From: Bacillota bacterium
GTDB lineage: Bacteria; Bacillota; Clostridia; Acetivibrionales; Acetivibrionaceae
Assembly: GCA_049325575.1 (NCBI GenBank)
Contig: JBMOLK010000188.1
Coordinates: 2,758 to 66,757, forward strand
DNA length: 64,000 nucleotides
Reading direction: 5' to 3'
A program made the translations under genes and the position numbers. The notes below the pieces were generated by a model that did not search any database, had not been told where the DNA came from, and worked only from the letters and a program-made list of their open reading frames with translations. Positions 5,339 to 38,753 of this stretch are shown one piece after another. Each line of letters begins with the position of its first letter. Position 1 is the first letter of the stretch.

Positions 5339-5386
5339 TGAGAAGCCTGGAACTTATAATGTGTTAAATATATAGGAGGTTTTAAA

Positions 5387-5596
5387 ATGAAAGTCGTTGT
5401 AAATGGAAAGGATGTATTACTCGAAAAGGAGATTACAATAAAAGAGCTCTTAATGACTCAGAAGGTTGAAATGCAAAATTATGTCACCGTACAGGTAAAT
5501 GATGAACTGATAGCAAGAGAGGACTTTGAAACCTTGACTGTCAAGGAGGGAGATGTGGTAGAATTCCTTTACTTCATGGGTGGAGGTGCTGTATGA
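5387..5596 (+). CDS. ThiS/MoaD-family sulfur-carrier protein (HcyS/CysO-like) with GG plus 2-residue C-terminal extension
   Basis: 69 aa beta-grasp protein ending FMGGGAV. Translationally coupled to the E1 gene. Confidence 0.7.
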   Translation: MKVVVNGKDVLLEKEITIKELLMTQKVEMQNYVTVQVNDELIAREDFETLTVKEGDVVEFLYFMGGGAV

Positions 5597-6405: not shown

Positions 6406-6456
6406 TAAACGGCGGATCAAAATAATATAAGTGTTTATTTAGGAAGGTGACTAATA

Positions 6457-6873
6457 TTGGTTGTAATAACAAAGCAACAATATAAAGACATATTGGATCA
6501 TTCCCTTGGGGCTTTACCAAATGAAGCCTGCGGGCTTTTGGGCGGCATAGCTGTAAACGATATAAAATATGTGAAAAGGGTATACCTGCTTACCAATATT
6601 GATAATAGCCCCGAGCACTTTTCAATGGACCCTAAGGAGCAGTTTTCGGCGGTAAAGGATATGAGGAGCAACGGGTGGGTGATGCTGGGGAATTTTCACA
6701 GCCATCCTGCCTCACCTTCACGTCCTTCTGAAGAAGACAAAAGGCTGGCATTCGATCCCGGGGTCAGCTACTTGATCATATCGCTGATGGATCAAGAGAA
6801 TATTGTTTTAAAGAGCTTTAGTATAATTAAGAGTGAGGCTTTAGAGGAAGAATTAGTTATAGAAGGAGAATGA
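6457..6873 (+). CDS. JAMM/MPN+ metalloprotease (HcyD/Mec+-like) that would trim the carrier C-terminus
   Basis: HSHPASPSRPSEED JAMM motif (HxHx7Sx2D) with an upstream E. Confidence 0.75.
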   Translation: MVVITKQQYKDILDHSLGALPNEACGLLGGIAVNDIKYVKRVYLLTNIDNSPEHFSMDPKEQFSAVKDMRSNGWVMLGNFHSHPASPSRPSEEDKRLAFDPGVSYLIISLMDQENIVLKSFSIIKSEALEEELVIEGE

Positions 6874-7742
6874 CTATGGCAGGTGTAGATTACAAGGAAC
6901 TTAAAAAAGGCGGTTTCATGCGTCAGGTACAAAAAGACAATTTTGCTCTAAGGCTAAGAATTGTAGGCGGCCAAATTGAGGCAGATCAATTGCTCAAGGT
7001 TTATGAAATCGCAAAGAAGTACGGACAGGGTTATATTCATATGACTGCACGTCAAAGTATTGAAATTCCCCATATTAAGCTTCAGGATATTGAGGCTGTA
7101 AAAAAAGAGCTGCTTGATGCTGGGCTGCAGCCTGGGGCATGCGGCCCGAGGGTAAGGACAATTACTGCATGCCAGGGCAGTACAATTTGTACCAGCGGAT
7201 TGATAGATACAAATTCCCTGGCAAAGGAATTTGACGAAAAATACTATGCCAGGGAATTACCTCATAAGTTTAAGCTTGGTATTACAGGCTGCCGCAACAA
7301 CTGTCTTAAGGCCGAGGAAAATGACCTTGGAGTGAAGGGCGGGATGAAACCGGAATGGATTGAGGGCAACTGTACTTTCTGTGGGCTCTGTGAAGTGGTT
7401 TGCCGTGAGAAGGCCATTATGGTAGATAAGAAAAATCGAAAGCTTGATTTTGATGAAAGCGCCTGCAATTACTGCGGACGCTGCGTAAAATCTTGTCCTG
7501 TGGAAGCCTGGGAAGGTAAAAGCGGGTTTATTATCTATTTCGGTGGGTTGTTTGGCAACAGGATTGCCATTGGAAAGCAGCTTTTTCCTATTATTTTTTC
7601 CAAAGAAGTACTCCACAGGGTAATAGAAACCACACTTGAATTCTTTAAAAAGCATGGAAAACAAAGTGAGCGTTTTGGGAACACCCTTGACCGTGTTGGT
7701 TGGGAGCTTTTTCAAAAAGAGCTGGAGGAGGTTATAAAATGA
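6870..7742 (+). CDS. small assimilatory sulfite reductase (nitrite/sulfite reductase siroheme-4Fe4S domain plus 2x[4Fe-4S] ferredoxin)
   Basis: CxxCxxC...CP ferredoxin motifs (CTFCGLCEVVC, CNYCGRCVKSCP) and a NiR/SiR-type Cys cluster. Confidence 0.65.
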   Translation: MTMAGVDYKELKKGGFMRQVQKDNFALRLRIVGGQIEADQLLKVYEIAKKYGQGYIHMTARQSIEIPHIKLQDIEAVKKELLDAGLQPGACGPRVRTITACQGSTICTSGLIDTNSLAKEFDEKYYARELPHKFKLGITGCRNNCLKAEENDLGVKGGMKPEWIEGNCTFCGLCEVVCREKAIMVDKKNRKLDFDESACNYCGRCVKSCPVEAWEGKSGFIIYFGGLFGNRIAIGKQLFPIIFSKEVLHRVIETTLEFFKKHGKQSERFGNTLDRVGWELFQKELEEVIK

Positions 7743-7984
7743 GTGAAATTAAAGCGGATTCCTTTGTAGATATTACCGATGTGGTTTGTCCCATGACTTT
7801 TGTGAAAGCCAAGGTTGCCATTGAGGAACTGGAGGACGGGCAGGTTCTAGAAGTGAGGATGAACGAGGGAGAGCCAATAATGAACGTGCCTAAAAGCTTT
7901 AAAGAGGAAGGCCACAAGGTTATAAACGTAACAAACAATAATGACGGAACATTTACAGTGTTTGTTGAAAAGGGTGGAATATAA
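7739..7984 (+). CDS. TusA/SirA-like sulfurtransferase
   Basis: DITDVVCPMTF matches the CPxP-type TusA motif. A likely start at 7739 has a GGAGGAGG RBS, whereas the ORF track starts at 7700. Confidence 0.55.
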   Translation: MSEIKADSFVDITDVVCPMTFVKAKVAIEELEDGQVLEVRMNEGEPIMNVPKSFKEEGHKVINVTNNNDGTFTVFVEKGGI

Positions 7985-9214
7985 ATGAGATTTAATACAG
8001 CTCTTTTACACGGTAATTTTACATCTGATGGTAAAACCGGTGCTACAACAACTCCCATATACCAGTCTTCCTCCTTTAAACACGGGACAGCTGAAGAATT
8101 GGAGAATGTTTTCAATGGACGTGAACCGGGCTACATCTACACAAGAATAAATAATCCCTCTATTGAAGCCTTCGAGATGCGCATTGCCTATCTTGAAGGC
8201 GGAGTTGGTGCCGTTGCATGTGCTTCCGGAATGGCGGCTGTAACACTTGCTCTGCTGAATATTTTAAAGAGCGGGGATGAGATTGTATCGGGAAGCGGTA
8301 TTTTCGGGGGCACCCATTCTCTTTTTAAGTGCTTTGAAGACTTCGGCATAACTGCAAGATTTGCCAAAGATAATAGCGTAGGCAGCTTTGAAGAATGCAT
8401 CAATGAGAAAACAAGAGTTATTTTTGTAGAAACCATAGGTAATCCCAGGCTTGATGTACCCGATATCAAAGCTTTGTCGGAGCTGGCGCACAGGTTTGGA
8501 ATTCCGCTTGTAGTAGACAGCACTGTTACAACTCCATACCTTGTAAAGCCTATAAGTCTTGGTGCGGATATTGTAGTTCACTCAACCTCAAAATATATAA
8601 ACGGAAGCGGTAATTCCATTGGAGGAATTATAGTTGACAGCGGAAAATTCAAATGGGATATTAATAAATACCCCTCATTAAAGGCTTATAAGAAATTTGG
8701 AGAGTTTGTATATCTTGCAAAGCTTAGAAAAAGCTTGTTCAAAGATTTTGGAGCATGTATGTCCCCTTTTAATGCATATCTTAGCAGTCTGGGGCTTGAA
8801 ACCCTGGCTTTAAGGATGGACCGGCTTTGCAGCAATGCACTGGGTCTTGCCAAAAGCTTACAGGATAATCCAAAGGTTGTTTCTGTAAATTATCCCGGGC
8901 TTAATGAAAGTGAATATTATACTTTGGCAGATGAGCAGTTTAATGGTAAATTTGGTGCTATTCTTACAATAAGGGTTGGCTCAAAAGAAAATGCCTTTAA
9001 GTTAATAAATTCACTTAAATATGCTGCAAACCTTGCCAATATTGGTGATGTAAGAACATTGGTTATCCATCCGGCTTCAACCATCTACGCAACTAATAAT
9101 ATCGAAGAGAAAGAAATAATGGGGGCCCATGAGGATTTGATAAGGATAAGTGTCGGGCTTGAGGACATTGAAGATATTGTGGAAGACTTCACTCAAGCGT
9201 TGAATATGGTATAA
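7985..9214 (+). CDS. metY: O-acetylhomoserine sulfhydrylase family PLP enzyme
   Basis: Cys/Met-metabolism PLP fold with the PLP-lysine region HSTSKYINGSGNSIGG. Its position follows a thiocarboxylate carrier module. Confidence 0.8.
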   Translation: MRFNTALLHGNFTSDGKTGATTTPIYQSSSFKHGTAEELENVFNGREPGYIYTRINNPSIEAFEMRIAYLEGGVGAVACASGMAAVTLALLNILKSGDEIVSGSGIFGGTHSLFKCFEDFGITARFAKDNSVGSFEECINEKTRVIFVETIGNPRLDVPDIKALSELAHRFGIPLVVDSTVTTPYLVKPISLGADIVVHSTSKYINGSGNSIGGIIVDSGKFKWDINKYPSLKAYKKFGEFVYLAKLRKSLFKDFGACMSPFNAYLSSLGLETLALRMDRLCSNALGLAKSLQDNPKVVSVNYPGLNESEYYTLADEQFNGKFGAILTIRVGSKENAFKLINSLKYAANLANIGDVRTLVIHPASTIYATNNIEEKEIMGAHEDLIRISVGLEDIEDIVEDFTQALNMV

Positions 9215-13036: not shown

Positions 13037-14644
13037 GTGTATATGGATATAGTACCAAAGCAGATAGATAGAATAGGTACAAGCAACAACGGAGCATTTT
13101 GTTTTGACGATTGTATTGCAACATACGCGGGATACATTGGACGAAGCTATGAAATGATGTATGGCAACTGCTGGAGCTTTAGTCTAATTCCAGGACGGAT
13201 GAATGATACAACTTCTTTGGTAGAAATAATGAATACTGATAGAAATGAAAGCTATAGATTACTTGAAAAGCTTCATGGTATTAAATTGAAGAGAGAGAAG
13301 CTTTTAGAGAGTAGTAAAGCAAAAAGCTATATATTAGAGGAGTTGGAAGCCGGAAGGCCTACGGTATTTATAACAGATGCTTTCTGGTGTCCCTGGGACC
13401 CTGTGTTTCAGAAATACCATAATATTCACGCTTTCCTGATAGTCGGCTTTGACGAAACAAATAATAGTTTTATTTGTGTAGACAGCTATTTCCTAAAGTG
13501 CAATTCAGTCCTGCCGATGGAGTGCTTTATTAATGGCTATAAAGGCATATACTCCTTTGAAGCATTACCTGAACCTGTCGTTATAAATTATGAGGAAGTA
13601 ATAAGAGATCATGCGAAAAGTTTACTTTCAGGATGCAGTGGGGAAAATCATTTTGAGTTGATGCGTAGTTTTGGCAGTGAATTAATGAATATAGACATAA
13701 AAAGGCAGCTTGAAGACAGCGGTGAGTTTTGGTTATGCCCTATATTCCAGGTATTCAATTATATAATTTCTACCCGGGTTTTATATGCAAACGCTTTAAA
13801 ATACATTGCTGATAAATCCAATATCAAATATGTGGCTGAAATTTTGGAGTCTTTCCTTCTGGTTATTGAAAAATGGAATGTGGCTAAGGGAATGCTTATT
13901 AAATCCTTTAGCCTAAATAACACGCATACCGAAGTAGTGAGGAAGCTTAGCGATACAATAATTGAGCTGGCCAAAGAAGAGGAAGGGCTTGCTTTGGATA
14001 TAACTAAAGCAAATATTGACCAACTGAATATCAAAGCATCTATAAAGGATAATAAAGTAAGCAGGCAAGATATAATAAATTATTCATGTAACGATTATGT
14101 TTTTATTGACCTGTCCGGCTATTTAAACAATAAAGGCTTTGATACATATCCTCCTAAAAGCCCTATGTCCGACTTTACAAGTTATGGACACTATTTCATT
14201 AGAGAGGAAGATTTTATAAGAGATACATGGAATGTTGGAGATATGTTGTTTAAAGTACACATAGACCCTAACGAAACATATGACAATGTATCATGCATGG
14301 GGCAGGAGATATCAGTTCCAGAGGGTTATTATGGAAGGATTCGGATTATGGGGTGTTCGGAATATGGAAGCTACACGGATAAAGTTGGTATATACACAAC
14401 AGGTGGAAATGTATATAGCATTCCCATAACGTTTTATGAGTGGTGTGATAATTCAAACAAGGATATCCTGGCATGGAAGGGAAGAATTGCTCACAAAAAA
14501 GAAAACGAAGTATTGATCATTGATCAGGAACACAAGATCTATGCAAAAGAGTTTGTACTAAGCTATAACGAGAAGATAAACAAAATTAAACTACCGGAGT
14601 GTCCCAATTTGCATTTGTTTGCAATATCAATGCTTAAGTCTTAG
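13037..14644 (+). CDS. hypothetical protein, possibly BtrH-N/papain-like (GAFCFDDC Cys motif)
   Basis: 535-aa ORF with strong coding periodicity and no confident family assignment. Confidence 0.3.
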   Translation: MYMDIVPKQIDRIGTSNNGAFCFDDCIATYAGYIGRSYEMMYGNCWSFSLIPGRMNDTTSLVEIMNTDRNESYRLLEKLHGIKLKREKLLESSKAKSYILEELEAGRPTVFITDAFWCPWDPVFQKYHNIHAFLIVGFDETNNSFICVDSYFLKCNSVLPMECFINGYKGIYSFEALPEPVVINYEEVIRDHAKSLLSGCSGENHFELMRSFGSELMNIDIKRQLEDSGEFWLCPIFQVFNYIISTRVLYANALKYIADKSNIKYVAEILESFLLVIEKWNVAKGMLIKSFSLNNTHTEVVRKLSDTIIELAKEEEGLALDITKANIDQLNIKASIKDNKVSRQDIINYSCNDYVFIDLSGYLNNKGFDTYPPKSPMSDFTSYGHYFIREEDFIRDTWNVGDMLFKVHIDPNETYDNVSCMGQEISVPEGYYGRIRIMGCSEYGSYTDKVGIYTTGGNVYSIPITFYEWCDNSNKDILAWKGRIAHKKENEVLIIDQEHKIYAKEFVLSYNEKINKIKLPECPNLHLFAISMLKS

Positions 14645-14653: not shown

Positions 14654-17600
14654 ATGGTGTTTAGGGGGGAGAATATGAGTAATGTTGGTATGGAAAATAA
14701 GGTTAAGCTTTATCCACTAACCCATCCTCAAAAGAGAATATGGTATGGGGAAGTGCTTAATAAAGATACTTCCCTTTACAATATCGGAGGACCTGTAAGA
14801 ATAAGGGGATATGTAGATTTTGGTACTCTGCAGCAATCCATAAACATTTTTATAAAAAAGAATGATAGCTTAAGGATGCGGTTTAATGAACAAAACGGTG
14901 AAATAAAGCAGTATATTAGTGAATTCAAAGAGACTAAAATAGATTTTTTTGATTTCAGTACATGCAAAAATCCTGAAGATGAGTTTAACAAGTGGATAGA
15001 ATACGAAGCCGGTAAGAGATTTGACTTAAAAGAAGATTATTTATATTATTTTGCAATGTTTAAAAATGGCGAGTACGATTCCGGATACTTTGTTAAATTT
15101 CATCACTTGATAGCCGATGGCTGGTCAATGCAGATTTTGACAAGCCAGATTTGTGATATTTACATGAAACTTTTACATGGCTCCAGGATAGATGAAGAGG
15201 TTGAATATTCGTATTTAGAATATATTGATAGGGAGCAGAAGTACTTATTATCCGATAAGTTCATTAAAAACAGGAATTTTTGGAAACAAAAATTTCAAAC
15301 ATTGGATGAGGTGTATTTTGGTAAATCTTCTGAAAGCATCAAAGGGAATAGAAAGACTTTCAGGATGGATAAGGATAAATCCCTGAAGATAAAAAACTTC
15401 TCAAAAGAAAATAAATGCTCCTTGAACACACTGTTTGTTTCCTTATATTTAATCTATTTGTATAAGACAACACAACATCAAGATTTGATTATTGGAGTCC
15501 CTGTACTAAATAGATCAGGAAAAAGAGAAAAAAGCATATTTGGGATGTTTACAAGTACAATGCCTTTTAGAATGTATATAAAAGGCTCAATGACGGCAGC
15601 AGAATTTATAAACCATGTAAACAGCGAATTGATGGAATGCTATTTCAATCAGAAATATCCCTATGATCTTTTGGTGCAGGATATTGAGCTTAAGAAAAAG
15701 GGCTATAATGAGTTGTTTAATGTATGCATTAATTATTATAATACCAGGCTTAATACCGAATTTAACGGTGCTTTAACAGAAAATACGGAGTTTTATAATG
15801 GGAATCAGCTTTATTCGATGCAGATTGTTATTAAAGAATGGGAAGACTTAGGAGAAATAAACCTGGACTTTGATTATAAGTCAGGTGATTTTAGTGAAGA
15901 ACAGATCGAAAATATGTACATGTATTTAAGTAACCTGATTGATCAGATTACAGCAGATTCAATGGCTGTTATCGGATCGTTAAGGCTGCTTCCCGACTCT
16001 TCCAGGAACAGACTCATTTATGAGTTTAATTCAACATGTGTAGATTACCCGAAAAACAATACAATATTCCAGCTGTTTGAGGAGCAGGTTTGCAGGACAC
16101 CTGATAAGACTGCGGTAAGCTTTAATGGGAAAAGCATTACTTATAGAAAGCTTAACAAAAAAGCAAACCAACTTGCCAGACTGTTAAGATACAAAGGTAT
16201 TGGAAGAAATACTGCTGTAGGATTTATGACAACCCACTCAATAGAAACTGTTATAGGAATCCTGGGTGTTATAAAAGCAGGGGGTGCTTATGTGCCTATC
16301 GATCCCTGCTATCCTATGGAAAGAATAAACTATATCCTTGAAGATTCCAAGGTATCAGTTCTGCTTGCCAATTGTAGTCTGGATGGCGGTTTGGATTATA
16401 AGGTGGATATTATTGATCTTAGGGATGAAACCATATATAAAGGTGAAGCAAGTAATCCTGATTTAATAAATGAAATGAATGACCTGGTTTATATTATTTA
16501 TACTTCAGGTTCTACAGGAAAGCCTAAAGGCACAATGATAGAGCACAGGGGGCTTGTTAACTATATATGGTGGGCAAAAAAGATGTATGTAAGACATGAG
16601 GATGATGTTTTTGCGCTTTATTCTTCTTTATCCTTCGATCTTACAGTAACCTCGGTTTTTACACCACTTATAAGCGGGAATAAAATCATGGTTTATGCAG
16701 ATGACGGCGAAGAGTTTGTTCTTTACAGGATACTTGGAGATAATCAAACTACTGTTCTAAAGCTAACACCGGCACATTTATCATTGATTAAGGATTTGGA
16801 TAATAGTAATTCATCAGTTAAAAGGCTTATCGTTGGAGGAGAAGACCTAAAGGTTGTTCTTGCGAAGAGTATCTATGACAGCTTCGGAGGAGACATAGAA
16901 ATATTTAATGAGTATGGCCCTACAGAGACAGTGGTTGGCTGTATGATCCACAAGTATGATGTTGAAAAAGATACTGAACAATCAGTGCCTGTTGGTATAC
17001 CTGCTGATAATGTGCAGATCTATATTCTTGATAAAAATCTTGAGCCTGTACCTTTAGGAGTAAGCGGAGAAATTTACATTTCGGGAGATGGTGTAGCAAG
17101 AGGTTATCTGAATAGACCGGAGTTAACAGCTCAAAAGTTCATTGACAATCCATTTATTAAAGATAAGAGAATGTATAAGACAGGTGATATTGCCAGACAC
17201 CTGCCTAACGGTATAATTGAGTATTCAGGCAGGGCAGACTTTCAGGTTAAGATAAGAGGTTACCGTATCGAATTGGGTGAGATAGAGAATCAGATATTAA
17301 AAATAAAAGGTGTTGATGATGTTGTAGTTATAGACAGGGAAGACTCTTTAGGCAGCAAATACCTGTGTTCATATATTGTTTCAAAGGTACAAATGCCGTT
17401 AACAGAGATAAGGCAGTATTTGTCAGGTGTTTTACCTGATTATATGATCCCATCAAGGTTTGTATCCTTAGATAGAATTCCCCTTACAACCAACGGGAAA
17501 GTAAACAGACAGCTTTTACCCGAACCTTTGGAGGAAAATATTGATGAATCTGACTGTGTTTGCTTTAATAATAAAACAGAAGAAAAGATTATAAAAACTA

Positions 17601-19189
17601 TCAAGGAAGTGCTTAATGTTGCCAGGATAAACAGGAGAGATAATTTCTACCGGCTTGGCGGCGATTCAATTAAGGCAATTCAAATTGCAGCAAGGCTAAA
17701 CGAACTTGGCCTTAAGATAAGAGTAAAGGATATTCTATCTAAAAATGTAATTGAAAAAATCATGGCATGTGTTGAGACTGACACTGCATTTGAAGCTTTG
17801 GAAAACAAAGCCTTAGAAGGAGAAATCGGAATAACGCCAATTGTATCATGGTTTTTTGAGCAGCATTTTAAAAACCCCAATTATTATAATCAATCGGTAT
17901 TACTTTCCCTAAATACAAATGTTGGACTTGACAATATGGAGCAGGCAATAAATATATTAATCAGACATCATGATGCCCTAAGAATAAATTACAGCAGCCA
18001 GAAGGGTATTTTATATTATAACAATGACTATCTAAATGAACATCAGAAACTGCAGATATTTGACCTATCTTTCGTTCCCTTAGATGAACAGAAGGTAAAA
18101 ATGAGACAAATCTGTGAAGAGATAAAATCATCCCTGGATATTGAAAAGGGGATTTTATTCAAGGCTTGTGCGTTAGAGCTTGGTCATTACGGCAGGAGGC
18201 TTCTTTTAACAGGGCATCACCTGATTGTGGATGGTGTATCCTGGAGAATTCTGCTTGAGGACCTTGCCAGGGTTTTAGGTTCTCTGGAGAAGAATATTGA
18301 GTTGTCTCTGCCTCAAAAGTCAAGCTCACTCAAGGAATGGGCTTCACAGCTTTTAAAGCTTGGTCAGGGCAGCCTTAAACAAGAAAGAGAATATTGGAAT
18401 AACGTTATAAGCAGTAGTTTCAGTTTTCCGGTTGATTTTGATCTCGGCCATGACAATATAGAAAACTGTAACGTGAAAAGGTTTGTAATTGATGCTGATG
18501 ATACTGAAAATCTGTTAACCACAGCAAATGCTCCTTATGGTACAAATCCTAACGATCTGCTCCTTACTGCTTTGGTTGCAGCTATTAGGAAGATGTATGC
18601 TGCTGATGAGGTTGTAATAGAGCTGGAGGGACATGGAAGAGAAGACCTGTTTGACAGGTTGGATGTTACAAGGACTGTTGGCTGGTTTACAAGTATCTTT
18701 CCTGTAAAGCTTAAAGCTGTTGGTTCGGATTTAGGATCACAAATCAAGTCTATCAAAGAGCAGCTAAGGAGAGTTCCCAATAAAGGGATTGGGTTTGGTG
18801 TTTTGAAGTACATGTCAAAATTAGTTCCAGTCTGCGATAAAAGGTATGCAAGATTTAATTACCTTGGGGAGTTTGACAATAGTCAGGATGAAAATATTTA
18901 TAAAATATCACTTGAAGACTCGGGTCCTGACTCGGCTAAATCCAACCACTTGACATGTTTATTAGATATAAATGCATTGGTTTTAGACAAAAATTTAAAT
19001 ATATCAATAACTTACAGCAGAAACAAATACCTGGACGAAACGGTTGAAAAACTTATGAAGGAATACAAAAATTCACTGGCAAGTGTAATAAAACATTGCT
19101 TAGGCAAAAGACACTCTGTTGATTTTACACCATCAGATTTTGAAACATTAAATATCTCACAGGATGAACTTGACCAACTTTTTATATAG
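14654..19189 (+). CDS. NRPS module C(starter)-A-T-E with asparagine-type specificity code; ClbN-like prodrug-motif loader
   Basis: HHLIADGWS (C); YTSGSTGKPKG, NEYGPTE, YKTGD, GRADFQVKIRGYRIELGEIE (A); LGGDSIKAIQ (T); ITPIVSWFFEQ and HHLIVDGVSW (E). The hand-aligned Stachelhaus positions give D-L-T-K-I-G-E-V-G-(K). Confidence 0.9.
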   Translation: MVFRGENMSNVGMENKVKLYPLTHPQKRIWYGEVLNKDTSLYNIGGPVRIRGYVDFGTLQQSINIFIKKNDSLRMRFNEQNGEIKQYISEFKETKIDFFDFSTCKNPEDEFNKWIEYEAGKRFDLKEDYLYYFAMFKNGEYDSGYFVKFHHLIADGWSMQILTSQICDIYMKLLHGSRIDEEVEYSYLEYIDREQKYLLSDKFIKNRNFWKQKFQTLDEVYFGKSSESIKGNRKTFRMDKDKSLKIKNFSKENKCSLNTLFVSLYLIYLYKTTQHQDLIIGVPVLNRSGKREKSIFGMFTSTMPFRMYIKGSMTAAEFINHVNSELMECYFNQKYPYDLLVQDIELKKKGYNELFNVCINYYNTRLNTEFNGALTENTEFYNGNQLYSMQIVIKEWEDLGEINLDFDYKSGDFSEEQIENMYMYLSNLIDQITADSMAVIGSLRLLPDSSRNRLIYEFNSTCVDYPKNNTIFQLFEEQVCRTPDKTAVSFNGKSITYRKLNKKANQLARLLRYKGIGRNTAVGFMTTHSIETVIGILGVIKAGGAYVPIDPCYPMERINYILEDSKVSVLLANCSLDGGLDYKVDIIDLRDETIYKGEASNPDLINEMNDLVYIIYTSGSTGKPKGTMIEHRGLVNYIWWAKKMYVRHEDDVFALYSSLSFDLTVTSVFTPLISGNKIMVYADDGEEFVLYRILGDNQTTVLKLTPAHLSLIKDLDNSNSSVKRLIVGGEDLKVVLAKSIYDSFGGDIEIFNEYGPTETVVGCMIHKYDVEKDTEQSVPVGIPADNVQIYILDKNLEPVPLGVSGEIYISGDGVARGYLNRPELTAQKFIDNPFIKDKRMYKTGDIARHLPNGIIEYSGRADFQVKIRGYRIELGEIENQILKIKGVDDVVVIDREDSLGSKYLCSYIVSKVQMPLTEIRQYLSGVLPDYMIPSRFVSLDRIPLTTNGKVNRQLLPEPLEENIDESDCVCFNNKTEEKIIKTIKEVLNVARINRRDNFYRLGGDSIKAIQIAARLNELGLKIRVKDILSKNVIEKIMACVETDTAFEALENKALEGEIGITPIVSWFFEQHFKNPNYYNQSVLLSLNTNVGLDNMEQAINILIRHHDALRINYSSQKGILYYNNDYLNEHQKLQIFDLSFVPLDEQKVKMRQICEEIKSSLDIEKGILFKACALELGHYGRRLLLTGHHLIVDGVSWRILLEDLARVLGSLEKNIELSLPQKSSSLKEWASQLLKLGQGSLKQEREYWNNVISSSFSFPVDFDLGHDNIENCNVKRFVIDADDTENLLTTANAPYGTNPNDLLLTALVAAIRKMYAADEVVIELEGHGREDLFDRLDVTRTVGWFTSIFPVKLKAVGSDLGSQIKSIKEQLRRVPNKGIGFGVLKYMSKLVPVCDKRYARFNYLGEFDNSQDENIYKISLEDSGPDSAKSNHLTCLLDINALVLDKNLNISITYSRNKYLDETVEKLMKEYKNSLASVIKHCLGKRHSVDFTPSDFETLNISQDELDQLFI

Positions 19190-30600: not shown

Positions 30601-32498
30601 GCAAAATTCTGATTTTTGCTGATGAAAAGGGGATGGCCGATAATCTTGCATCAAAGCTTAAAACTGCACAAACCGAAGTTGCTATGGTGAATTTCGGCTG
30701 TGAGTATTTTAAGATCAGTGATGAAAAATATATTATATCTTCTAAGGAAAGGGATTACAAACGATTATTTAGTGAAATTGACCTTAAAGATATTGCTCAC
30801 ATTATTCACATGTCCAGTATATTGGGGAATTCAGAAATAAAAGATGTTAATGAGCTTGAAAGAAGCCAGGATATGGGAGTGAGAAGCCTTTTTCATATTG
30901 TTAGGGAGCTGCTCGGTATTGGCACAACAAACAAAGTGAATGTGTATCTTATTTCCCAATATGCCAACAGGGTAACTGGAAAGGAAAAAAGGATAAATCC
31001 TGAAAATGCAACACTATTTGGACTGGGCAAAGTCATTGAGCAGGAGTATCCAAACCTTAGCTTAAGATGTATAGATATAGATTTGGAAACTTCCATAAAT
31101 GAAATTTTTAAAGAAATATCAGCTTATTTGCCATCCAACCTGGTTGCCTACCGCGCTGGAAAGCGATATGTTGAAGAATTTAGAAGGCTTGAGATCGGTC
31201 AGATTTTAAGGCAGGACGTTTCCATAAAAGACAATGGTGTTTATTTGATTACCGGAGGATTAGGCGGCATAGGGCTTGAAACAGGAAAGTATATTGCGTC
31301 CAAGAATAGGGCAAATATCGCATTAATAAGCCGGTCAGAGCTTCCACCAGGTGAAGAGTGGGAAAAGATTCTAAGAGACGGTACTGACAGTATGTTGTGT
31401 CACAAAATAAAGGCCATTAAAGAAATTGAAGGCATGGGGTCAAGGGTAACATGTATTAGTGCTGATGTATCAAATGAAGAAGAAATTGCAGCTGCCGTTA
31501 ATGGATTGCGCCAAGTTTACGGAAGAATAAGGGGTGTAATACATAGTGCAGGGCTGGCGGGAGACGGGTTTATAATCAAAAAGAATCAAGAAGAATTTGA
31601 TAAGGTACTGTCCCCAAAGGTTAGAGGTACATGGCTTTTGGATATGTTAACCAGGCAGGATAAACCTGATTTCTTCATTATGTTTTCTTCAAATAATACT
31701 TTAATGGGTGTACCGGGGCAGGGGGATTATACAGCGGCAAACAGCTACCTGTGTGCATTTTCCGACTATAGGAATATAAGAGGTGAGAGAACACTGGCTA
31801 TAAACTGGCCTGCATGGAAGGAAACAGGTATGGCAGTTAACCATGGTGTCAACTTTGACAGTATTTTTAAGGCTATGCCTACAAAGCAGGCTCTAGATGC
31901 TTTCGATTTAGCCATAGGTCTTAATGTGAACAGGGTTATAATCGGTGAATTGAATGTTGGCGGTTCTATACACGGTAAAACAATATATGATGCAAAGATT
32001 AGTTTGTCAGAGCAAATAAAATCAAGGATAGACAGGAAAAACGAAAGTACCCCTGTAAAGAAGGGACTTAACGAAAAGGTTAAAGATATAAAGGTGGCAC
32101 TTAAAGGTAAAAAAACTGGAGACTTTACGGAGGAAGAAAAAATAATGGCAGGAATATGGAAGGAGGTTCTTGGATTTGAAGAGTTTGATATTTATGAAGA
32201 CTTCTTTGATATAGGAGGAGACTCTATACTGATAACAAAGGTACAGGCTTTGGCAGAGGAACGATTTCCCGGAAGAATTTCAGTTTCAGATCTTTTTTCT
32301 TACAGGACTATTTCAGATTTGGCTAAGCATTTATCAAAAGAACAGGATAAGCTTAAAGAGCAGCATTATATAGATATAAAGCCTATGTCATCCAGCTCTG
32401 ATATGGACAAAGGCATAAACGAACTTCTAGATGCAATACATAAGGGTGATATTGATATTGACAAGGCTGTTGAAAGCTATAAGTCTATGGGGGTATAG
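27681..32498 (+). CDS. trans-AT PKS module KS-(AT-less linker)-DH-KR-ACP
   Basis: DTTCSSSL, EAHGTGTKLGDPIE, SNIGHLD (KS); HxxxGxxxx-type DH motif (HRIMGDCVLVG); ITGGLGGIGL (KR); IGGDSILITK (ACP). No AT domain lies between the KS and the DH. Confidence 0.9.
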   Translation: MLNFENIRLNINKKPAPVELEEISKKDIAIIGAAIKLPMANTLEEYWNNLRNGIDCVRSIPDSRKRDADDILSQMDIDVSTVKYAEAAYLDEIDRFDYSFFKLAPKEACLMDPNQRLFLETAWNAVEDSGYGGTKLVGSRTGVYVGYGSDPDYKRLISSAEPEAASFALTGNVRPIIASRLSYLMDFRGPSLLVDTTCSSSLMAVHLALRGIRNGECELAIAGGVQVHILPVRQTKIGIESSDGRAKTFDDGSDGTGTGEGVIAIVLKSLSKALEDGDNIYAVIKGSAANHDGASIGLTAPNAEAQEDVIVRAWKESGIDPSTISYIEAHGTGTKLGDPIEIDGIQRAFRRFTGRKSFCAVGSVKSNIGHLDNTAGIAGLLKAVLALENKQIPPTLHFKYPNRKINFEESPVYVNNKLSDWNTEGFPRRCGVSAFGLSGTNVHIILEEAPLRSKEEYVTEAALNVFTLSAKSKAVLREMADNYTKFLEKNKGLNIKDICYTANTGRGHYGFRLAVLAKDNYELLERLRELSVSEFDYISNRRIFYGEHKLAPVNKEVLGEGEVTEAVVKETSIAAESKIRDFLSSAKESEDLIVEICKAYVKGAEINWEEFYKGRKYKRISLPSYAFEKKRCWVEAKGSSKRKVDYARDVQWSLLDNQVAESMGVDIYSTSFSVDSHWVLNEHRIMGDCVLVGTAYLEMAIQACHKHFQGVFVEFRDIVFVKPLVVREGEYKDVQTIITSRNGFYEFTVVSNGGFDDLGQVIWVRHVEGKILGCRERDIKAVDVSEIRDRNREGYFIPDIDSYNADSVFEFGPRWKNIREMYIGDGELLSHIKMPDMFTGELMDYVLYPSLMDNAIATMPLLDKLLKNSPFSGENGIFLPFSYKRLRILRSLPAEFYSYVKLKGDISDGSESVTFDIVLLDKSGEAFAEIEEYTLKKAKKNQMPQSKAGTSDIYYEVAWIPQDITVREKDIKKGKILIFADEKGMADNLASKLKTAQTEVAMVNFGCEYFKISDEKYIISSKERDYKRLFSEIDLKDIAHIIHMSSILGNSEIKDVNELERSQDMGVRSLFHIVRELLGIGTTNKVNVYLISQYANRVTGKEKRINPENATLFGLGKVIEQEYPNLSLRCIDIDLETSINEIFKEISAYLPSNLVAYRAGKRYVEEFRRLEIGQILRQDVSIKDNGVYLITGGLGGIGLETGKYIASKNRANIALISRSELPPGEEWEKILRDGTDSMLCHKIKAIKEIEGMGSRVTCISADVSNEEEIAAAVNGLRQVYGRIRGVIHSAGLAGDGFIIKKNQEEFDKVLSPKVRGTWLLDMLTRQDKPDFFIMFSSNNTLMGVPGQGDYTAANSYLCAFSDYRNIRGERTLAINWPAWKETGMAVNHGVNFDSIFKAMPTKQALDAFDLAIGLNVNRVIIGELNVGGSIHGKTIYDAKISLSEQIKSRIDRKNESTPVKKGLNEKVKDIKVALKGKKTGDFTEEEKIMAGIWKEVLGFEEFDIYEDFFDIGGDSILITKVQALAEERFPGRISVSDLFSYRTISDLAKHLSKEQDKLKEQHYIDIKPMSSSSDMDKGINELLDAIHKGDIDIDKAVESYKSMGV

Positions 32499-32502
32499 TT
32501 TG

Positions 32503-34548
32503 ATGGACAAAGTCTATAAAATGTTATTTGAGAATATTACTTCAGGAAAAGTTGACAGGAAAGCAGGGGTGGATATTCTAAAAGCTTTAAAGGAAGAAGA
32601 AAATCACAATACCAGAGATGATATGGCCATTATTGGAATATCTGCAAAGTTCCCTGGTGCGGAGAATATAAGTGAATTCTGGACAAACCTAAGAAGCGGA
32701 GTAAACAGTATTACAGATTTTCCGGAAAACAGACGCCAGGACTCGGATGCTTTTGTACCATTCACATATATGAAGAATGAAGATGTAAAATACTGCAAAG
32801 GTGGATATCTTAAGGAAGTAGACAAGTTCGACCATAGGTTTTTTGGAATTTCACCCAAAGAAGCAAGTCTTATGGATCCAAGTCAAAGAATCTTCCTTGA
32901 AACAGCATGGAATGCCATTGAAGATGGAGGGTACGGAGGCAAAAAACTTATGGGAAGCAGGACGGGCTTGTATATTGGATATTCCGGGTGGCCCATGTAT
33001 GGACAGTTTGTATCCCATGTTGAGCCAGCAGCTTTTGATGTCTCGGTTACAGGAAATATTTCAGCCATTATTTCAAGAAGAATACCTTACCTGATGGATA
33101 TGAGCAGTCCCAGCATGCTTATAGATACTGCATGCTCATCATCCCTTGTAGCACTCCATCTAGCATGCCAGGGCATAAGAAATGGTGATTGTGACCAGGC
33201 ATTGGTGGGAGCAATAAGACTTTTGCTGATGCCAATTGAAGGGATGATTTCATATGGCATTGAATCAAAGGACTATAACTCCAAACCTTTTGACGATAGT
33301 GCAGATGGTACAACCCTTAGCGAAGGCGTGGCTGCTATTTTGATTAAACCTTTAAGGAAAGCAATCAAGGATAGAGATAATGTCTATGCTGTTATAAAAG
33401 GAACTGCCTGCAACCAGGATGGAGGTTCAGTCGGACTTACTGCTCAAAGCGCTGCTGCCCAGGAAAATGTAATTGTTAAGGCCTGGGAGGATTCAGGCAT
33501 AAATCCGGAAACAATTTCATATATCGAAGGTTTCGGGGCTTGTACCAAGCTGGGTGATACCTTGGAAATAGAAGGCATTCAAAGGGCGTTTGGAAGATAT
33601 ACCCATAGAAAACAATTCTGTGGGATAGGATCAGTAAAATCAAATATTGGCCATCTTGATAGCTGTTCAGGACTGGCCGGACTGATAAAGTCGGTTCTTT
33701 CCCTAAAGCATAGGGAGATACCTCCTACTTTGAACTTTAGAAACCCTAATAAATCGATAAATTTTGAACAGTCACCAGTTTACATAAATGATAGATTAAA
33801 AAAATGGGACTCTGATATTGCTAAAAAAAGGTGCGGTATAAGCTCCTTTGGTTTTAGCGGTACAAACGCCCATGTTGTACTTGAAGAGGCAGCAGAGATT
33901 AATGTAGAAAGGAATTTAACAAAAAAACACTTCTTTATATTTGTTCTGTCTGCAAAAAGTAAGGAATCCCTGGAGGAGCTTATAAAAGCATATAAAGATT
34001 ATGTAAGAAATGAGAAAGAGGTAAGACTTCATGATATATGCTATACTTCCAGTACCGGAAGGGGGCATTACAATTACAGGCTGGCATTGATAGCAGAGAG
34101 TGAAGCAGAATTTACAGAGAAGCTGGAAAAACTTGACGCAGCGGAAGTCATTAATAATAGGGAAGATAATGTTTATTTTGGGTGGCATAAAGCTGTACCG
34201 GCTAATAAGGAGTTTAGACAGGACGGGGAATTGACCGAGTCTGAAATAAGAGAATACGGGAAAGCAGCAAACTTGCTGATAGACAAATACAAAAAAGATA
34301 TTTATGGGGAAAAAAGTATATTAGCAGAACTGTGCGGGTTATATGTAAAAGGAGCTGATTTAGATTGGGAGCGACTATACGAGGGTGATAAATACTACAG
34401 GATAAGTTTACCCGTATATCCCTTTGAAAGAAAAAGGTGCTGGATTAATGTAAAGAAAAAGCCTGAAGAATATATAAAACCAGGTACCAAAACAGATAAA
34501 GCCCGTTTAGAGAATGTACTTGATGAAAATATTGATTTTAAGTTTTAG
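32503..34548 (+). CDS. stand-alone non-elongating ketosynthase (KS0) with flanking linker subdomain
   Basis: The active-site Cys is retained (DTACSSSL), but the HGTGT histidine is replaced (IEGFGACTKLGD) and SNIGHLD is present. The probable start is at 32503 (MDKVYK) with a GGGGGTA RBS, not 32431. Confidence 0.75.
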   Translation: MDKVYKMLFENITSGKVDRKAGVDILKALKEEENHNTRDDMAIIGISAKFPGAENISEFWTNLRSGVNSITDFPENRRQDSDAFVPFTYMKNEDVKYCKGGYLKEVDKFDHRFFGISPKEASLMDPSQRIFLETAWNAIEDGGYGGKKLMGSRTGLYIGYSGWPMYGQFVSHVEPAAFDVSVTGNISAIISRRIPYLMDMSSPSMLIDTACSSSLVALHLACQGIRNGDCDQALVGAIRLLLMPIEGMISYGIESKDYNSKPFDDSADGTTLSEGVAAILIKPLRKAIKDRDNVYAVIKGTACNQDGGSVGLTAQSAAAQENVIVKAWEDSGINPETISYIEGFGACTKLGDTLEIEGIQRAFGRYTHRKQFCGIGSVKSNIGHLDSCSGLAGLIKSVLSLKHREIPPTLNFRNPNKSINFEQSPVYINDRLKKWDSDIAKKRCGISSFGFSGTNAHVVLEEAAEINVERNLTKKHFFIFVLSAKSKESLEELIKAYKDYVRNEKEVRLHDICYTSSTGRGHYNYRLALIAESEAEFTEKLEKLDAAEVINNREDNVYFGWHKAVPANKEFRQDGELTESEIREYGKAANLLIDKYKKDIYGEKSILAELCGLYVKGADLDWERLYEGDKYYRISLPVYPFERKRCWINVKKKPEEYIKPGTKTDKARLENVLDENIDFKF

Positions 34549-37500
34549 TGCTGGGGGGATATAATTTGACAAAAACGATTCAACAGTTGTTTGAAGAGCA
34601 GGTAGAAAAAACACCTGATAGTACTGCAGTATGGTATGAGGGTAATAAGCTTACCTTTAGAGACCTAAATGAAAAAGCCAATCAGCTTGCAAGGAAACTG
34701 CGTGAAAAAGGCGCAGGTCCCGATTGTATAACAGGTATTCTCTTTGAAAGGTCTTTGGACATGATAATTGCTATTGTTTCTGTACTAAAGGCTGGTAGTG
34801 CATATATGCCTGTTGCAGTTGATTATCCTGAAAACAGGAAAAAATACATATTGGAAGACAGCGGAGCGAAAATATTGCTGACTCAAAAACACCTTGCAGA
34901 AAGCCTTCCGCTGCTGCCAGGAGTTGATATAATTGCTATTGACGATGATAAAATCTATGGTGGAGATACGTCAAACCTCCAGGAAGGAAACAGCCCCAAG
35001 GATCTTGCATACGTTATATATACATCGGGAACTACAGGAAAGCCAAAAGGAGTTATGATTGAGAATAAAAGCGTTGTAAATCTTGTAAATGGGCTTTTCA
35101 GTCATATTTATAAAAGGTATGATTTCAGTTTAAATATTGCCCTTTTGGCGCCTTATACCTTTGATGCATCAATTAAACAGATCTTTCCATCCCTTCTTCT
35201 AGGGCATACACTATTTATTGTACCCGAGAGCATCCGGCTAGACGGAAAGGAACTTTTGAACTATTTTAACAGGAATTCAATTGACATAGCGGACGGAACT
35301 CCGGCGCATATCGGAATGCTTGCAAGTTATACGCCGCTTCTTAAAGACGAACTTGCGGTAAAGCACTTTGTTATAGGGGGAGAAGCCTTACCAGCAAAAC
35401 TGGTAAAGGAATTTTTAGACTCTATTGAAGAAAGAAAGCCTCTTGTTACAAATGTATATGGCCCTACAGAGTGCTGTGATGTTTCAACACTCTACACCAT
35501 TTATCCAAAAGAAGCTTATAGTAATAATATTATACCTATTGGGTCTCCCATAGAAAATGTAACCGTTTATATACTGGATGAAAATGAAAAAGCGGTAAAG
35601 GAAGGGACTGTGGGAGAATTATATATATCTGGAGAAGGAGTAGGTAGGGGATATTTAAATAAACCCCAGCTGACAAGCGAAAGGTTTATACCTGATCCGT
35701 TTATTAAAGGGAGAACCATGTATAAGACCGGTGATAAGGCAAGAATACTTCCGGACGGGAATATTGAATACCTGGGAAGGAATGACCATCAAGTAAAAGT
35801 TAGGGGCTTTAGAATTGAACCTGCAGAAATTGAATCGGAAATTATGGATTATGAAGCCGTAAAAGAAGCAGTAGTTATAGTAAGAGAAGAATATAGTGGT
35901 GATAAATATTTATGTGCCTACTACATATCCGACAGGGAAATCCAATCACAGGAACTTAAGGAGTTTTTAGCAAAAAGCTTGCCTTATTATATGATTCCGG
36001 CATACTTTATAAGGATGGTGAGCTTACCGCTTACGCACAACGGCAAGGTTGACAGGAATGCACTGCCCGAACCGGATATATGGGCTAACAAGGTTAAGAT
36101 TTATACAGCCCCTAAAAACGACACTGAAGAAAGAATGGCACATATATGGAAAGAAGTATTAGGTATTGGTCGGATTAGTATGGAAGATAACTTCTTTGAT
36201 TTGGGAGGACATTCCCTGAAAGCCAATATACTTGCATTCAAAATACATAAGGAGTTTAATATTGAAATACCTATAGCCGAAATTTTTGCAAATCCTACGG
36301 TCAATGATATGATAAGGTTTATGGAAGGAGCGGCAAGTAGAGATTATAAAAGTATACAACCTGTAGAGCATATGGATTTGTATCCTCTTTCCCTATCACA
36401 GAAATGGATTTTTGTCTCTAGCAGAGTAAACAGGGGAGATATTTTATGGAATATGCCGTGCTTGATGATGATTGATGGTAAACTTGATATAAAGCGTTTT
36501 GAAAATGCCCTGAACATGTTAGTGAAAAGACATGAAGCCTTTAGGACATCTTTTGAGATGACTGAACGGGGGCCGATGCAGAGAATTTATGATAATGTAA
36601 AATTGGATATATCATACATAGAGTCGGATGAAGATCAAATAGAAGGATTATTAAAGGAATTTATAAAACCCTTTGATTTAAACACCGTACCTTTATTAAG
36701 AGCGGGCCTTGCAAGAATATCTGAAGGCAAACATGCATTCTTATTTGATATTCACCATATCATATTTGATGGCTTGTCAGTAAATATCCTGTTGCGGGAA
36801 TTGGAAACTCTGTATGATGGCGGACAGCTGCCTGAATTAAAGATTCATTACAAGGACTTTGCTTACTGGGAAAATGAGCATTACATGTCAGGAGGGTTTA
36901 AAAAACAGGAAGATTACTGGTTGAAAGTTTTTAATGGCAAGATTCCGGAGCTTGATTTACATACGGATTTTCCAGGAAAACAGGAAATCGGCAATGAGGG
37001 TGACAGGGTAGTATTATCTCTAGGAGTTGATCTTACTGCCCATTTAAGAAAGTTTGCCTCAAAAGCAGGCTCATCCATTTACATGGTGTTGTTAGCTGCA
37101 TATAATATCTTGCTGTTTAAATATTCAGATCAGGAAGAAATTGTGGTAGGTACATTAACAGCAGGCAGACAGCATGCTGATCTGGAAAATATAATCGGCA
37201 TGTTTGTTAGGACCCTTGCAATGAAAAACCATCCCAAGCCATACAAAACTGCTGCTGAATTTTTAAGAGAAGTAAGGGATAACTCCTTAGCCGCATTTGA
37301 TAATCAGGAGTATCCGTTAAATCAACTTTTGGATGTACTCAAATTACCAAGAAATCTATCCAATCATCCATTATATAAAGTTATGTTTATAATGCAGAAT
37401 ATGGATAGCCCAAAGTTTAAAACGGATGGCCTTTTATTTAGACAGCATGACATTAATTTAAGGATCTCGGCATGTGATCTTATCCTGGAGGCTAGAGAAA

Positions 37501-37703
37501 ACCAAGAGGGAATAAAGCTAACTATGACTTACAAGACCAGGTTGTTTAAGAAGGAAACAATAGAGACCATGGTTTTAAACTATCTAAAGACATTGGAATT
37601 GTTAATTGTGAATCCGGATATTAAACTGTGTGATTTTGAATTGGAAGGACTACGTAAGGCTCTGGATAATGTTCTTGATGAAGATATTAATTTTAATTTT
37701 TGA
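34548..37703 (+). CDS. NRPS module A-T-C (terminal condensation domain)
   Basis: YTSGTTGKPKG, NVYGPTE, YKTGD (A); LGGHSLKANI (T); HHIIFDGLS (C). A TTG start at 34567 with a GGGGGGAT RBS is plausible. Confidence 0.9.
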   Translation: MLGGYNLTKTIQQLFEEQVEKTPDSTAVWYEGNKLTFRDLNEKANQLARKLREKGAGPDCITGILFERSLDMIIAIVSVLKAGSAYMPVAVDYPENRKKYILEDSGAKILLTQKHLAESLPLLPGVDIIAIDDDKIYGGDTSNLQEGNSPKDLAYVIYTSGTTGKPKGVMIENKSVVNLVNGLFSHIYKRYDFSLNIALLAPYTFDASIKQIFPSLLLGHTLFIVPESIRLDGKELLNYFNRNSIDIADGTPAHIGMLASYTPLLKDELAVKHFVIGGEALPAKLVKEFLDSIEERKPLVTNVYGPTECCDVSTLYTIYPKEAYSNNIIPIGSPIENVTVYILDENEKAVKEGTVGELYISGEGVGRGYLNKPQLTSERFIPDPFIKGRTMYKTGDKARILPDGNIEYLGRNDHQVKVRGFRIEPAEIESEIMDYEAVKEAVVIVREEYSGDKYLCAYYISDREIQSQELKEFLAKSLPYYMIPAYFIRMVSLPLTHNGKVDRNALPEPDIWANKVKIYTAPKNDTEERMAHIWKEVLGIGRISMEDNFFDLGGHSLKANILAFKIHKEFNIEIPIAEIFANPTVNDMIRFMEGAASRDYKSIQPVEHMDLYPLSLSQKWIFVSSRVNRGDILWNMPCLMMIDGKLDIKRFENALNMLVKRHEAFRTSFEMTERGPMQRIYDNVKLDISYIESDEDQIEGLLKEFIKPFDLNTVPLLRAGLARISEGKHAFLFDIHHIIFDGLSVNILLRELETLYDGGQLPELKIHYKDFAYWENEHYMSGGFKKQEDYWLKVFNGKIPELDLHTDFPGKQEIGNEGDRVVLSLGVDLTAHLRKFASKAGSSIYMVLLAAYNILLFKYSDQEEIVVGTLTAGRQHADLENIIGMFVRTLAMKNHPKPYKTAAEFLREVRDNSLAAFDNQEYPLNQLLDVLKLPRNLSNHPLYKVMFIMQNMDSPKFKTDGLLFRQHDINLRISACDLILEARENQEGIKLTMTYKTRLFKKETIETMVLNYLKTLELLIVNPDIKLCDFELEGLRKALDNVLDEDINFNF

Positions 37704-37726: not shown

Positions 37727-38753
37727 ATGGAAATTAAGGATTACACTAAGGAAGACGTAAAGTTCGATAAGGAGAGATCATATTGGCTCAATAAACTCCA
37801 TGGCATGTATACCAAATGATTTCCCGGATAAAGGAGAAAACGGCTATAAAAGTGCTGTTATGAGTTTTTCCTTTGACAAGGAAGTTTATGAAAGGATGAC
37901 AGCAATCAGCAATAAATCTGATTTTGCGCTATTTATTATATTACTTTCGGGGGTTAAATATATTCTGCATGAATACACCCAAAACAGCGATGTATTAACC
38001 ATAATGCCGGTATTTAAACAAAACTCTAAGAATGCTTTGCTTATAAACAGCATTCTTCCGCTCTTAACCAAACTAGATAGGAACAGAACTTTCAAGGAAT
38101 ATTTGAATGAAGTAAAAAATACCGTAGTTGATGCCAACGCCAACCAGAATTTTCCCATAATGAGTCTTATTGACCTCCTGAACGTAGAATTTGATGAAAA
38201 TGGACTCCCAATACTTGGTACGGTAGTTTCGTTAGATTCTGTTCACGATAAGGAATATATTGGAAGCTATAAGGCGGATACCCTCTTTTATTTTTACAAG
38301 GACAATGGGGACTTAAGGGTTGAAGTTGAATATAATTCCAATGCTTATGGCCAAGAAACTATAAGCCAGTTTGTAAAATATTTATTTGAATTTTTTGATG
38401 CTGTACTTAAGGTGCCGGAGAAAAGGTTAATAGATATTGAAATAATTCCAAATGAAGAGAGACAATTGATTAAGGAACGTATTGAGAGAATATGTGATTC
38501 AAAGAATAAACTAAGTTTCATGAACATAGAAGAGATTGAGGAAAAGTTAATAGAAATATGGCAGGATTTATTGGGAGTAGAAAGAGACGAAATAGAAAAT
38601 AATTCATTTTTTGAACTTGGAGGAAACTCCATGCTGGCAATTAAGCTGGAAATCGAAACTTCAAAGAAAGGGATTGTTATGAAATCTTCAGACATTTATA
38701 AATTTCAAACGGTTAAAGAGCTGTCAGCTTATATTGCAAGTAAAAATGAATGA
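37727..38753 (+). pseudogene. relic condensation-domain C-lobe plus PCP, interrupted by a frameshift near 37800-37815
   Basis: The 37727 frame reads MEIKDYTKEDVKFDKERSYWLNKLHG and stops at 37814. The 37800 frame continues with C-lobe-like FALFIILLSGVKYILHEYTQNSDVLTIMPV and FFELGGNSMLAIK (T). Confidence 0.5.

Follow-up and report, generated by a model that had tools for sequence, protein, structure and literature searches.

The window analyzed here is a stretch of 64,000 nucleotides from a Bacillota bacterium (assembly GCA_049325575.1, contig JBMOLK010000188.1, positions 2,758 to 66,757 of the forward strand), and it carries a compact gene cluster that combines nonribosomal peptide synthetase (NRPS) genes with genes of a trans-acyltransferase (trans-AT) polyketide synthase (PKS). 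The subject of this analysis is the first NRPS of the cluster, referred to as the loader, and in particular the residues that form the substrate pocket of its adenylation (A) domain, A1, which read as an asparagine (Asn) code. The loader is followed directly by a gene for a peptidase fused to an ATP-binding cassette (ABC) exporter and then by a second NRPS module. The features of these three genes are as follows, with the remaining domains abbreviated as C (condensation), T (thiolation, or carrier), E (epimerization) and TM (transmembrane), and lengths given in amino acids (aa).

14675..19189, forward strand: initiation NRPS, C-A-T-E; the deposited protein has 1504 aa and the first in-frame ATG is at 14654
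14708..16015, forward strand: N-terminal C domain, a starter C domain by position; HHxxxDG motif intact (FHHLIADGWS, 15098-15127)
16076..17500, forward strand: A domain A1 (aa 475-949), code DLTKIGEVGK
A1 code codons by first base, forward strand: D235 at 16637, L236 at 16640, T239 at 16649, K278 at 16760, I299 at 16829, G301 at 16835, E322 at 16910, V330 at 16934, G331 at 16937, K517 at 17498
17582..17770, forward strand: T domain with a GGDSI motif; codon of the phosphopantetheine-attachment Ser at 17666
17801..19186, forward strand: E domain; HHLIVDGVSW at 18212-18244 (including the preceding G) and LEGHGRE at 18623-18643
19232..22387, forward strand: putative ClbP-type S12 prodrug peptidase with TM region and ABC exporter, 1051 aa; Pfam Beta-lactamase and ABC_tran
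Parts of this fusion, forward strand: S12 peptidase at about 19370-20326, three TM helices at about 20408-20743, ABC exporter at about 20759-22351
22555..26328, forward strand: module 2, consisting of a C domain (apparently of the D-donor type), A2, T and a tail of about 210 aa; A2 code DLKNFGTDIK, homoserine-like

The stand-alone first module has the order C-A-T-E, as indicated by Pfam and NCBIfam matches and by full-length colinear alignments to ClbN and ZmaO. The Pfam content of the open reading frame (ORF) comprises Condensation, AMP-binding, AMP-binding_C, PP-binding and a second Condensation-like domain. A deposited protein from a Bacillota metagenome-assembled genome (MAG) matches the loader with 100% identity, and the nearest other sequence is only 56% identical. 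The N-terminal C domain is the first domain of the protein, with no carrier upstream, and its PDB matches, consisting of 7c1h (which we take to be RzmA-Cs) and ordinary C domains, all lie near 1e-27 and do not discriminate between subtypes. The best PDB matches of the last domain are all E domains, namely those of TycB (6ta8), GrsA (5isw), PvdL, BacC and TycA, with E-values of 7e-88 to 7e-68, and TIGR01720 is above its cut-off for this domain. Both the structural matches and the two motifs, HHxxxDG and EGHGRE, confirm that the E domain is intact. The GGDSI motif of the preceding T domain is said, from work by Linne and co-workers in 2001, to be typical of carrier domains upstream of E domains.

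The specificity codes of the three A domains in the cluster were obtained by aligning A1, A2 and A3 (the last from an A-T-C protein further downstream) to GrsA/PheA with MAFFT and reading positions 235, 236, 239, 278, 299, 301, 322, 330, 331 and 517. The GrsA reference segment (residues 180-526) is 100% identical to PDB 1AMU chain A and shares its numbering, and the extraction controls behaved as expected, with GrsA returning DAWTIAAICK and ZmaJ of the zwittermicin cluster returning the serine code DVWHFSLIDK. The codes are DLTKIGEVGK for A1, DLKNFGTDIK for A2 and DAKDVGVDVK for A3, and, apart from the added invariant K517, they reproduce exactly those that had been read by hand in an earlier sequence-only reading of the window. 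The four A1 motifs quoted in that reading, FDLTVTS (16634-16654), TVLKLTP (16751-16771), RLIVGGED (16823-16846) and FNEYGPTETVVGC (16904-16942), all lie within 16450-17000 and in the frame of the ORF at 14654/14675-19189, with K517 located beyond this range, at 17498. A1 possesses both D235 and K517, the residues that anchor the alpha-amino and alpha-carboxyl groups of the substrate.

The canonical Asn code, reportedly defined by Stachelhaus and co-workers in 1999, is DLTKLGEVGK. A1 matches this code at nine of the ten positions, and the sole change is L299I. The same comparison with two prodrug loaders gives ten of ten positions for ZmaO and nine of ten for ClbN (DLTKVGEVGK, extracted after clbN was located in E. 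coli Nissle 1917 with published polymerase chain reaction primers), so the earlier description of A1 as an Asn code with a conservative substitution at position 299 holds. The exact string DLTKIGEVGK is also among the Asn-activating signatures in a 2025 survey (PMC12283262). This survey was the only paper returned by a full-text search for the three code strings, of which it lists DLTKIGEVGK, and the strings are not in its supplement.

The likeness of the A1 pocket to that of ClbN is not a reflection of overall similarity. Over the whole domain, A1 is closer to GrsA (42.1% identity) and to the A3 domain encoded in the same cluster (43.4%) than to the A domain of ClbN (37.5%), but nine of its ten code residues are those of ClbN, against three of ten for either GrsA or A3. 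The pocket match between A1 and ClbN therefore goes beyond chance. A background set of 199 A-domain codes was assembled from about 80 other NRPS loci, which were the remaining loci from a scan of genome contigs with the generic motifs NEYGPTET and YxIYTSGS. Identity to the Asn code is bimodal in this set, with values of five or fewer or of seven or more, and A1 falls in the top class and carries E322, unlike the H322 of Asp-type codes, both kinds being represented in the background. Among the 120 closest homologues (48-56% identical), which include sequences from Clostridia, Paenibacillus, Brevibacillus and Bacillus, 119 have DLTKIGEVGK and the remaining one has F in place of L236.

A shift in the alignment had been named beforehand as the event that could change the code, and this concern proved justified for one position. 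Beyond position 330, in the stretch from motif A5 to the following conserved block, A1 is longer than GrsA by a single residue, and position 331 is read as C in a family-wide MAFFT alignment, as M in a phmmer alignment to LgrA, and as G (following V330) when the sequence is read without gaps from NxYGPTE. The ungapped reading is presumably the convention behind the EVGK ending of the canonical Asn code. ClbN and ZmaO carry the identical local sequence TE[AT][TV]VGCMI, and consequently the comparison of A1 with these two loaders is independent of where the gap is placed. Taken together, the pocket residues support A1 as a domain that would select Asn.

The gene encoding the peptidase/ABC fusion sits between the two NRPS genes, and its product begins with a signal or anchor segment. 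This protein aligns to full-length ClbP (7mdc), TM region included, with an E-value of 2e-57, and scores 372.5 bits with TIGR01194 against a cut-off of 286.2. The residues of ClbP at the D-Asn side chain include S188, which is Ser or Thr in prodrug peptidases and Asn in the wider S12 family, and H257 (His or Asn); N331 is strictly conserved only in prodrug peptidases, E92 orients N331 and excludes D-Asp, and W460 and W466 are located in the linker between TM2 and TM3 (PMC9889268). In the window peptidase, the catalytic residues S101, K104 and Y195 correspond to S95, K98 and Y186 of ClbP, while E98, T197, N266 and N339 occupy the positions of E92, S188, H257 and N331. Furthermore, W470 and W476 align to W460 and W466, and hydrophobic segments are found at aa 393-432, 438-459 and 475-504. 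The top-scoring PDB match, S. aureus Flp, is not a prodrug peptidase, and its residues at positions 188 and 331 are N and L. A long subclass of prodrug peptidases fused to an ABC transporter has been described, which includes EdeA, PamJ and ZmaM and is often annotated as 'cyclic peptide transporter' (PMC9889268). These comparisons support the neighboring protein as a ClbP-type prodrug peptidase that possesses all of the D-Asn-recognition residues and would be expected to cleave an N-acyl-D-Asn precursor.

The adjacency of the loader and the fusion is not peculiar to the window. Most loci from the genome-contig scan are unrelated NRPS; the true relatives are L003, L004 and L005, and L002 is a relative of the elongation module. 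In Paenibacillus tritici, P. plantiphilus and one Clostridia MAG (L003-L005), the gene for the peptidase/ABC fusion comes immediately after that for the loader, so that the two genes are adjacent in all three related genomes with enough flanking sequence.

The closest characterized parallel is the zwittermicin cluster, which was found on plasmid pBMB422 of B. thuringiensis YBT-1520 (zmaJ annotated) by a tblastn search of plasmids with the peptidase. The NRPS at the ZmaO position (1498 aa) is 47.8% identical to the window loader end to end, has the order C-A-T-E and carries an identical code, DLTKIGEVGK. The protein at the ZmaM position is 45.8% identical to the window fusion over 94% of its length, and the two agree at every ClbP position for D-Asn (T at 188, N at 257 and N at 331). 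As in the window, the loader and peptidase genes of the zwittermicin cluster are close together. The rest of the assembly line differs, as the window continues with one homoserine-like NRPS module, a trans-AT module of ketosynthase (KS), dehydratase (DH), ketoreductase (KR) and acyl carrier protein (ACP) domains, a probable non-elongating KS and an A-T-C protein, and is without the aminomalonyl/hydroxymalonyl extender genes, the ZmaJ-type Ser domain and the alpha/beta hydrolase beside the loader that are found in the zwittermicin cluster. In a review (PMC8264950), the functions given for ZmaO and ZmaM are proposals that lack experimental tests.

Biochemical precedent for the loader and the peptidase is provided by colibactin biosynthesis, as the activities of ClbN and ClbP have been established experimentally (PMC8264950, PMC9889268) and ClbN makes N-acyl-D-asparagine in vitro (PMC8264950). 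ClbN follows the same C-A-T-E loader logic as the window protein, to which it is 28.6% identical and colinear, and its code differs only at position 299 (V in ClbN, I in the window). ClbP, which is about 28% identical to the window peptidase, has in common with it the catalytic triad, the D-Asn-binding residues and a three-helix TM domain with W460/W466. The two peptidases differ in that H257 and K235 of ClbP are replaced by N and M in the window protein, and in that ClbP is not fused to a transporter, with export occurring via the MATE protein ClbM, whereas the window peptidase is fused to an ABC exporter. By their published description, PamJ (paenilamicin) and EdeA (edeine) have the same peptidase/ABC architecture as the window fusion (PMC9889268).

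The C domain of module 2 provides an additional indication of how the loader product may be used. Its E-values are 1e-66 to 1e-78 against TycB1, SrfA-C and the C domains that come after E domains in PvdL (557-1014) and BacC (476-921), and only 6e-32 against the C domain of TycC, which has an L-configured donor. On the donor-subtype assignments that we assume for these structures, the module-2 C domain looks like acceptors of D-configured donors. The tail that follows the T domain of this module (25696-26328) is weakly similar to the middle of a condensation domain and is kept in P. plantiphilus (L004) and in L084.

Based on this evidence, the small trans-AT PKS/NRPS assembly line very probably starts with the product of the ORF at 14675-19189, an Asn-loading prodrug module of the ZmaO/ZmaM subtype. 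The prodrug-loader interpretation that the sequence-only reading had attached to the A1 code is supported by the C-A-T-E architecture with an intact E domain, a D-donor-like C domain in the next module and an adjacent ClbP-type peptidase/ABC fusion. In the mechanism proposed for this pathway, A1 would first select L-asparagine and load it onto the T domain, whereupon the starter C domain would N-acylate the Asn with a fatty acyl thioester. Next, the E domain would invert Asn to D-Asn, and the resulting N-acyl-D-Asn would be passed to module 2, whose C domain would take D-configured donors. Finally, the masked product would be exported and unmasked by the neighboring fusion protein, whose ClbP-type serine peptidase, located at the outer side of the membrane, would cleave after D-Asn to free the active compound. 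In this scheme, the pocket residues, domain order, catalytic motifs, homology, synteny and conserved D-Asn-binding residues of the peptidase are observed, and Asn as the actual substrate, the donor of the acyl group, cleavage and the product structure are inferred.

The remaining genes of the cluster lie on the same strand downstream of module 2, and a possible further member is located immediately upstream of the loader.

13037..14644, forward strand: BtrH_N / C39-like protein, 535 aa; Pfam BtrH_N 38.1 bits against a cut-off of 29.7
26344..27621, forward strand: free-standing trans-acting malonyl acyltransferase; Pfam Acyl_transf_1, TIGR00128 (fabD) above cut-off
27681..32498, forward strand: trans-AT PKS module KS-DH-KR-ACP; HGTGT and KSNIGH present
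32431..34548, forward strand: stand-alone KS; DTACSS and KSNIGH present, HGTGT absent
34548..37703, forward strand: A3-T-C protein; A3 code DAKDVGVDVK
37727..38753, forward strand: last carrier protein (window ORF9), the C-terminal lobe of a C domain followed by T; apparent frameshift near 37800

The stand-alone KS is probably non-elongating, as it is without the HGTGT motif. The specificities of A2 and A3 had been read with less certainty than that of A1. No confident match had been offered for A2, but its code is identical at eight of ten positions to DLKNFGSDVK, with conservative changes of S to T and V to I. DLKNFGSDVK is a homoserine code found at the homoserine positions of the laxaphycin and scytocyclamide synthetases (PMC7524897); the likeness of A2 to these homoserine-activating domains is by code alone and suggests a homoserine-like substrate. 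P. plantiphilus (L004) has the identical A2 code behind its own syntenic loader and peptidase genes, and further NRPS proteins carry this code as well. A3 had been placed closest to Glu/Gln-type codes, and it does share seven of ten positions with the Glu code DAKDLGVVDK; this resemblance is superficial, however, in that the A3 signature DAKD[VI]GVD[VI]K differs from DAKD[LI]GVVDK. Orthologues of the A-T-C protein that are about 50% identical and located in syntenic clusters keep DAKD[VI]GVDVK, which argues that the A3 signature reflects a distinct specificity and not noise. As a matter of speculation, K239, D278 and D330 of A3 resemble the homoserine code with N278 changed to D, and a gamma-amino analogue such as diaminobutyrate could be the substrate. 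A full-text literature search found neither the A3 code nor near variants of it in any paper, and nothing pertinent on prodrug clusters from clostridia or with homoserine came up in a literature search.

The BtrH-like protein may belong to the pathway, as its gene adjoins the loader and homologues are found beside related NRPS genes (L083, 16729-18281; L002, 1668-2582). At the other end of the cluster, the N-terminus of ZmaQ (L082, 23721-24320) shows 37% identity (E-value 4e-42) to the half-C domain of window ORF9, and a truncated C-lobe may be a common feature of this group of pathways.

The gene for ORF9 appears to be damaged. A ribosome-binding site (RBS), gagggagg at 37711-37718, precedes an ATG at 37727 and a 30-codon frame (MEIKDYTKEDVKFDKERSYWLNKLHG...) that matches the N-termini of orthologues, while the rest of the protein is encoded in another frame from 37800, leaving the first ~25 codons out of frame behind a good RBS. 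In addition, ORF9 is without about 215 internal aa, between the half-C and T domains, that are carried by two orthologues; in L083 and L084, both of them metagenomic contigs that share the cluster order of the window, the last protein has 545-553 aa. A short ORF at 39078-39413 follows, which resembles the N-terminus of a MoxR-type AAA ATPase (VPGTGKT), ends in a PDLLPPDLLPPDL repeat and is probably a gene fragment at the downstream edge of the cluster. The out-of-frame start, the missing segment and the ATPase fragment would all be expected if the cluster in this MAG were decaying or misassembled, with an intact Asn pocket and no mature product. We regard this as unlikely, since all other genes of the cluster are intact long ORFs with their catalytic motifs and a single-base indel is a common error of MAG assembly. 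Furthermore, decay or misassembly would be compatible with the assignment of A1 to Asn.

It might also be considered that the N-acyl-D-Asn is a permanent lipid cap and that the protein combining a beta-lactamase fold with an ABC domain acts only in export or resistance. Cleavage by the peptidase is predicted from its sequence, and like Asn codes are common in ordinary elongation modules without a peptidase nearby. This proposal is nevertheless quite improbable, as the peptidase has the residues at positions S/T188, N331, W460 and W466 that are specific to prodrug-activating peptidases relative to the wider S12 family (PMC9889268), and genes for a loader and a peptidase co-occur both in the relatives of the window and in the zwittermicin and colibactin clusters. 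That A1 instead activates aspartate or another polar amino acid, giving N-acyl-D-Asp or a similar N-terminal unit, is scarcely credible: the codes for Asp and Asn differ little (DLTKVGHIGK is identical to A1 at seven of ten positions, and one signature is common to Asp and Asn domains in the survey, PMC12283262), but A1 carries E322 and V330 as in the Asn class rather than H322, its code is that of ZmaO and within one residue of that of ClbN, a demonstrated Asn user, and the adjacent peptidase retains the E92-N331 pair that is the basis of the preference of ClbP for Asn over Asp (PMC9889268). Separately, A1 was considered as a domain of the albicidin type, in which Asn is turned into cyanoalanine and the identical code DLTKIGEVGK is accompanied by a 342-aa insertion (PMC12283262), and this candidate was rejected as A1 is of normal length (aa 475-949) with no inserted domain.

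Several points weigh against the assignment of the loader as an Asn-loading prodrug module. All of the evidence for it is drawn from sequence. The identity of residue 331 hinges on gap placement, and the PDB matches of the N-terminal C domain, all near 1e-27, do not single out the starter-C subtype. For the lipid, neither an acyl-activating enzyme nor an acyl carrier could be identified among the cluster genes. Likewise, no thioesterase was found in the cluster, and consequently the BtrH-like protein could act in chain transfer or release. The damaged last gene may mean that the pathway in this MAG is not fully functional, or it may reflect assembly errors.

The genes that flank the cluster are varied. 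Three co-directional genes at 41408-49270 encode a 209-aa membrane protein, a 700-aa coiled-coil protein that is rich in Glu, Lys and Ala and has no Pfam match, and a 1653-aa DUF3686/DUF7902/AAA ATPase; neither the large ATPase region (41408-50990) nor the BtrH-like protein has a match in PADLOC. Genes for sulfate assimilation and sulfur amino-acid metabolism, together with an Rrf2 regulator, are located at 1861-9214 and 58523-61993. This set comprises two PAPS-reductase-family proteins, a GTPase with an APS-kinase domain (CysN/CysC-like, in our reading), ThiF, a sulfite reductase and three pyridoxal phosphate-dependent Cys/Met enzymes. A link between these sulfur genes and the supply of a homoserine-type building block is purely a matter of speculation. 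A protein with a type I dockerin domain is encoded at 52378-53139 and suggests a cellulosome-bearing host. Two-component systems are also among the flanking genes, and an Sfp-type phosphopantetheinyl transferase is encoded at 62193-62903, 24 kb downstream of the cluster.

The Asn call for A1 is what standard antiSMASH-type tools would output and is, as such, routine annotation. Work on xenocoumacin, zwittermicin and colibactin has likewise already established the prodrug logic, and hundreds of candidate prodrug peptidases, mostly from Firmicutes, are catalogued in a published network analysis (PMC9889268), so that the present finding adds an example rather than a concept. What remains of interest is the compound made by this compact cluster family, together with the specificity of A3 and the mechanism of release. 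It is possible, and we propose it tentatively as something a little short of an even chance, that the cluster represents an uncharacterized family of small prodrug-masked peptide-polyketides with the order N-acyl-D-Asn, a homoserine-like residue, one reduced C2 unit and the amino acid specified by DAKD[VI]GVD[VI]K. Such a family would recur in metagenomes of anaerobic Bacillota and, for at least the first modules, in Paenibacillus plantiphilus, and with no thioesterase its release might proceed via the BtrH-like protein or the half-C/T protein. Prodrug clusters of this kind are useful targets for genome mining, the source here being an uncultured Bacillota bacterium, and the masked precursor and the released N-acyl-D-Asn fragment would offer predictable handles for detection of the product by mass spectrometry. 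The combination of an Asn pocket with a matching peptidase marks the cluster as one for a self-protected bioactive compound, which is probably toxic or antibiotic.

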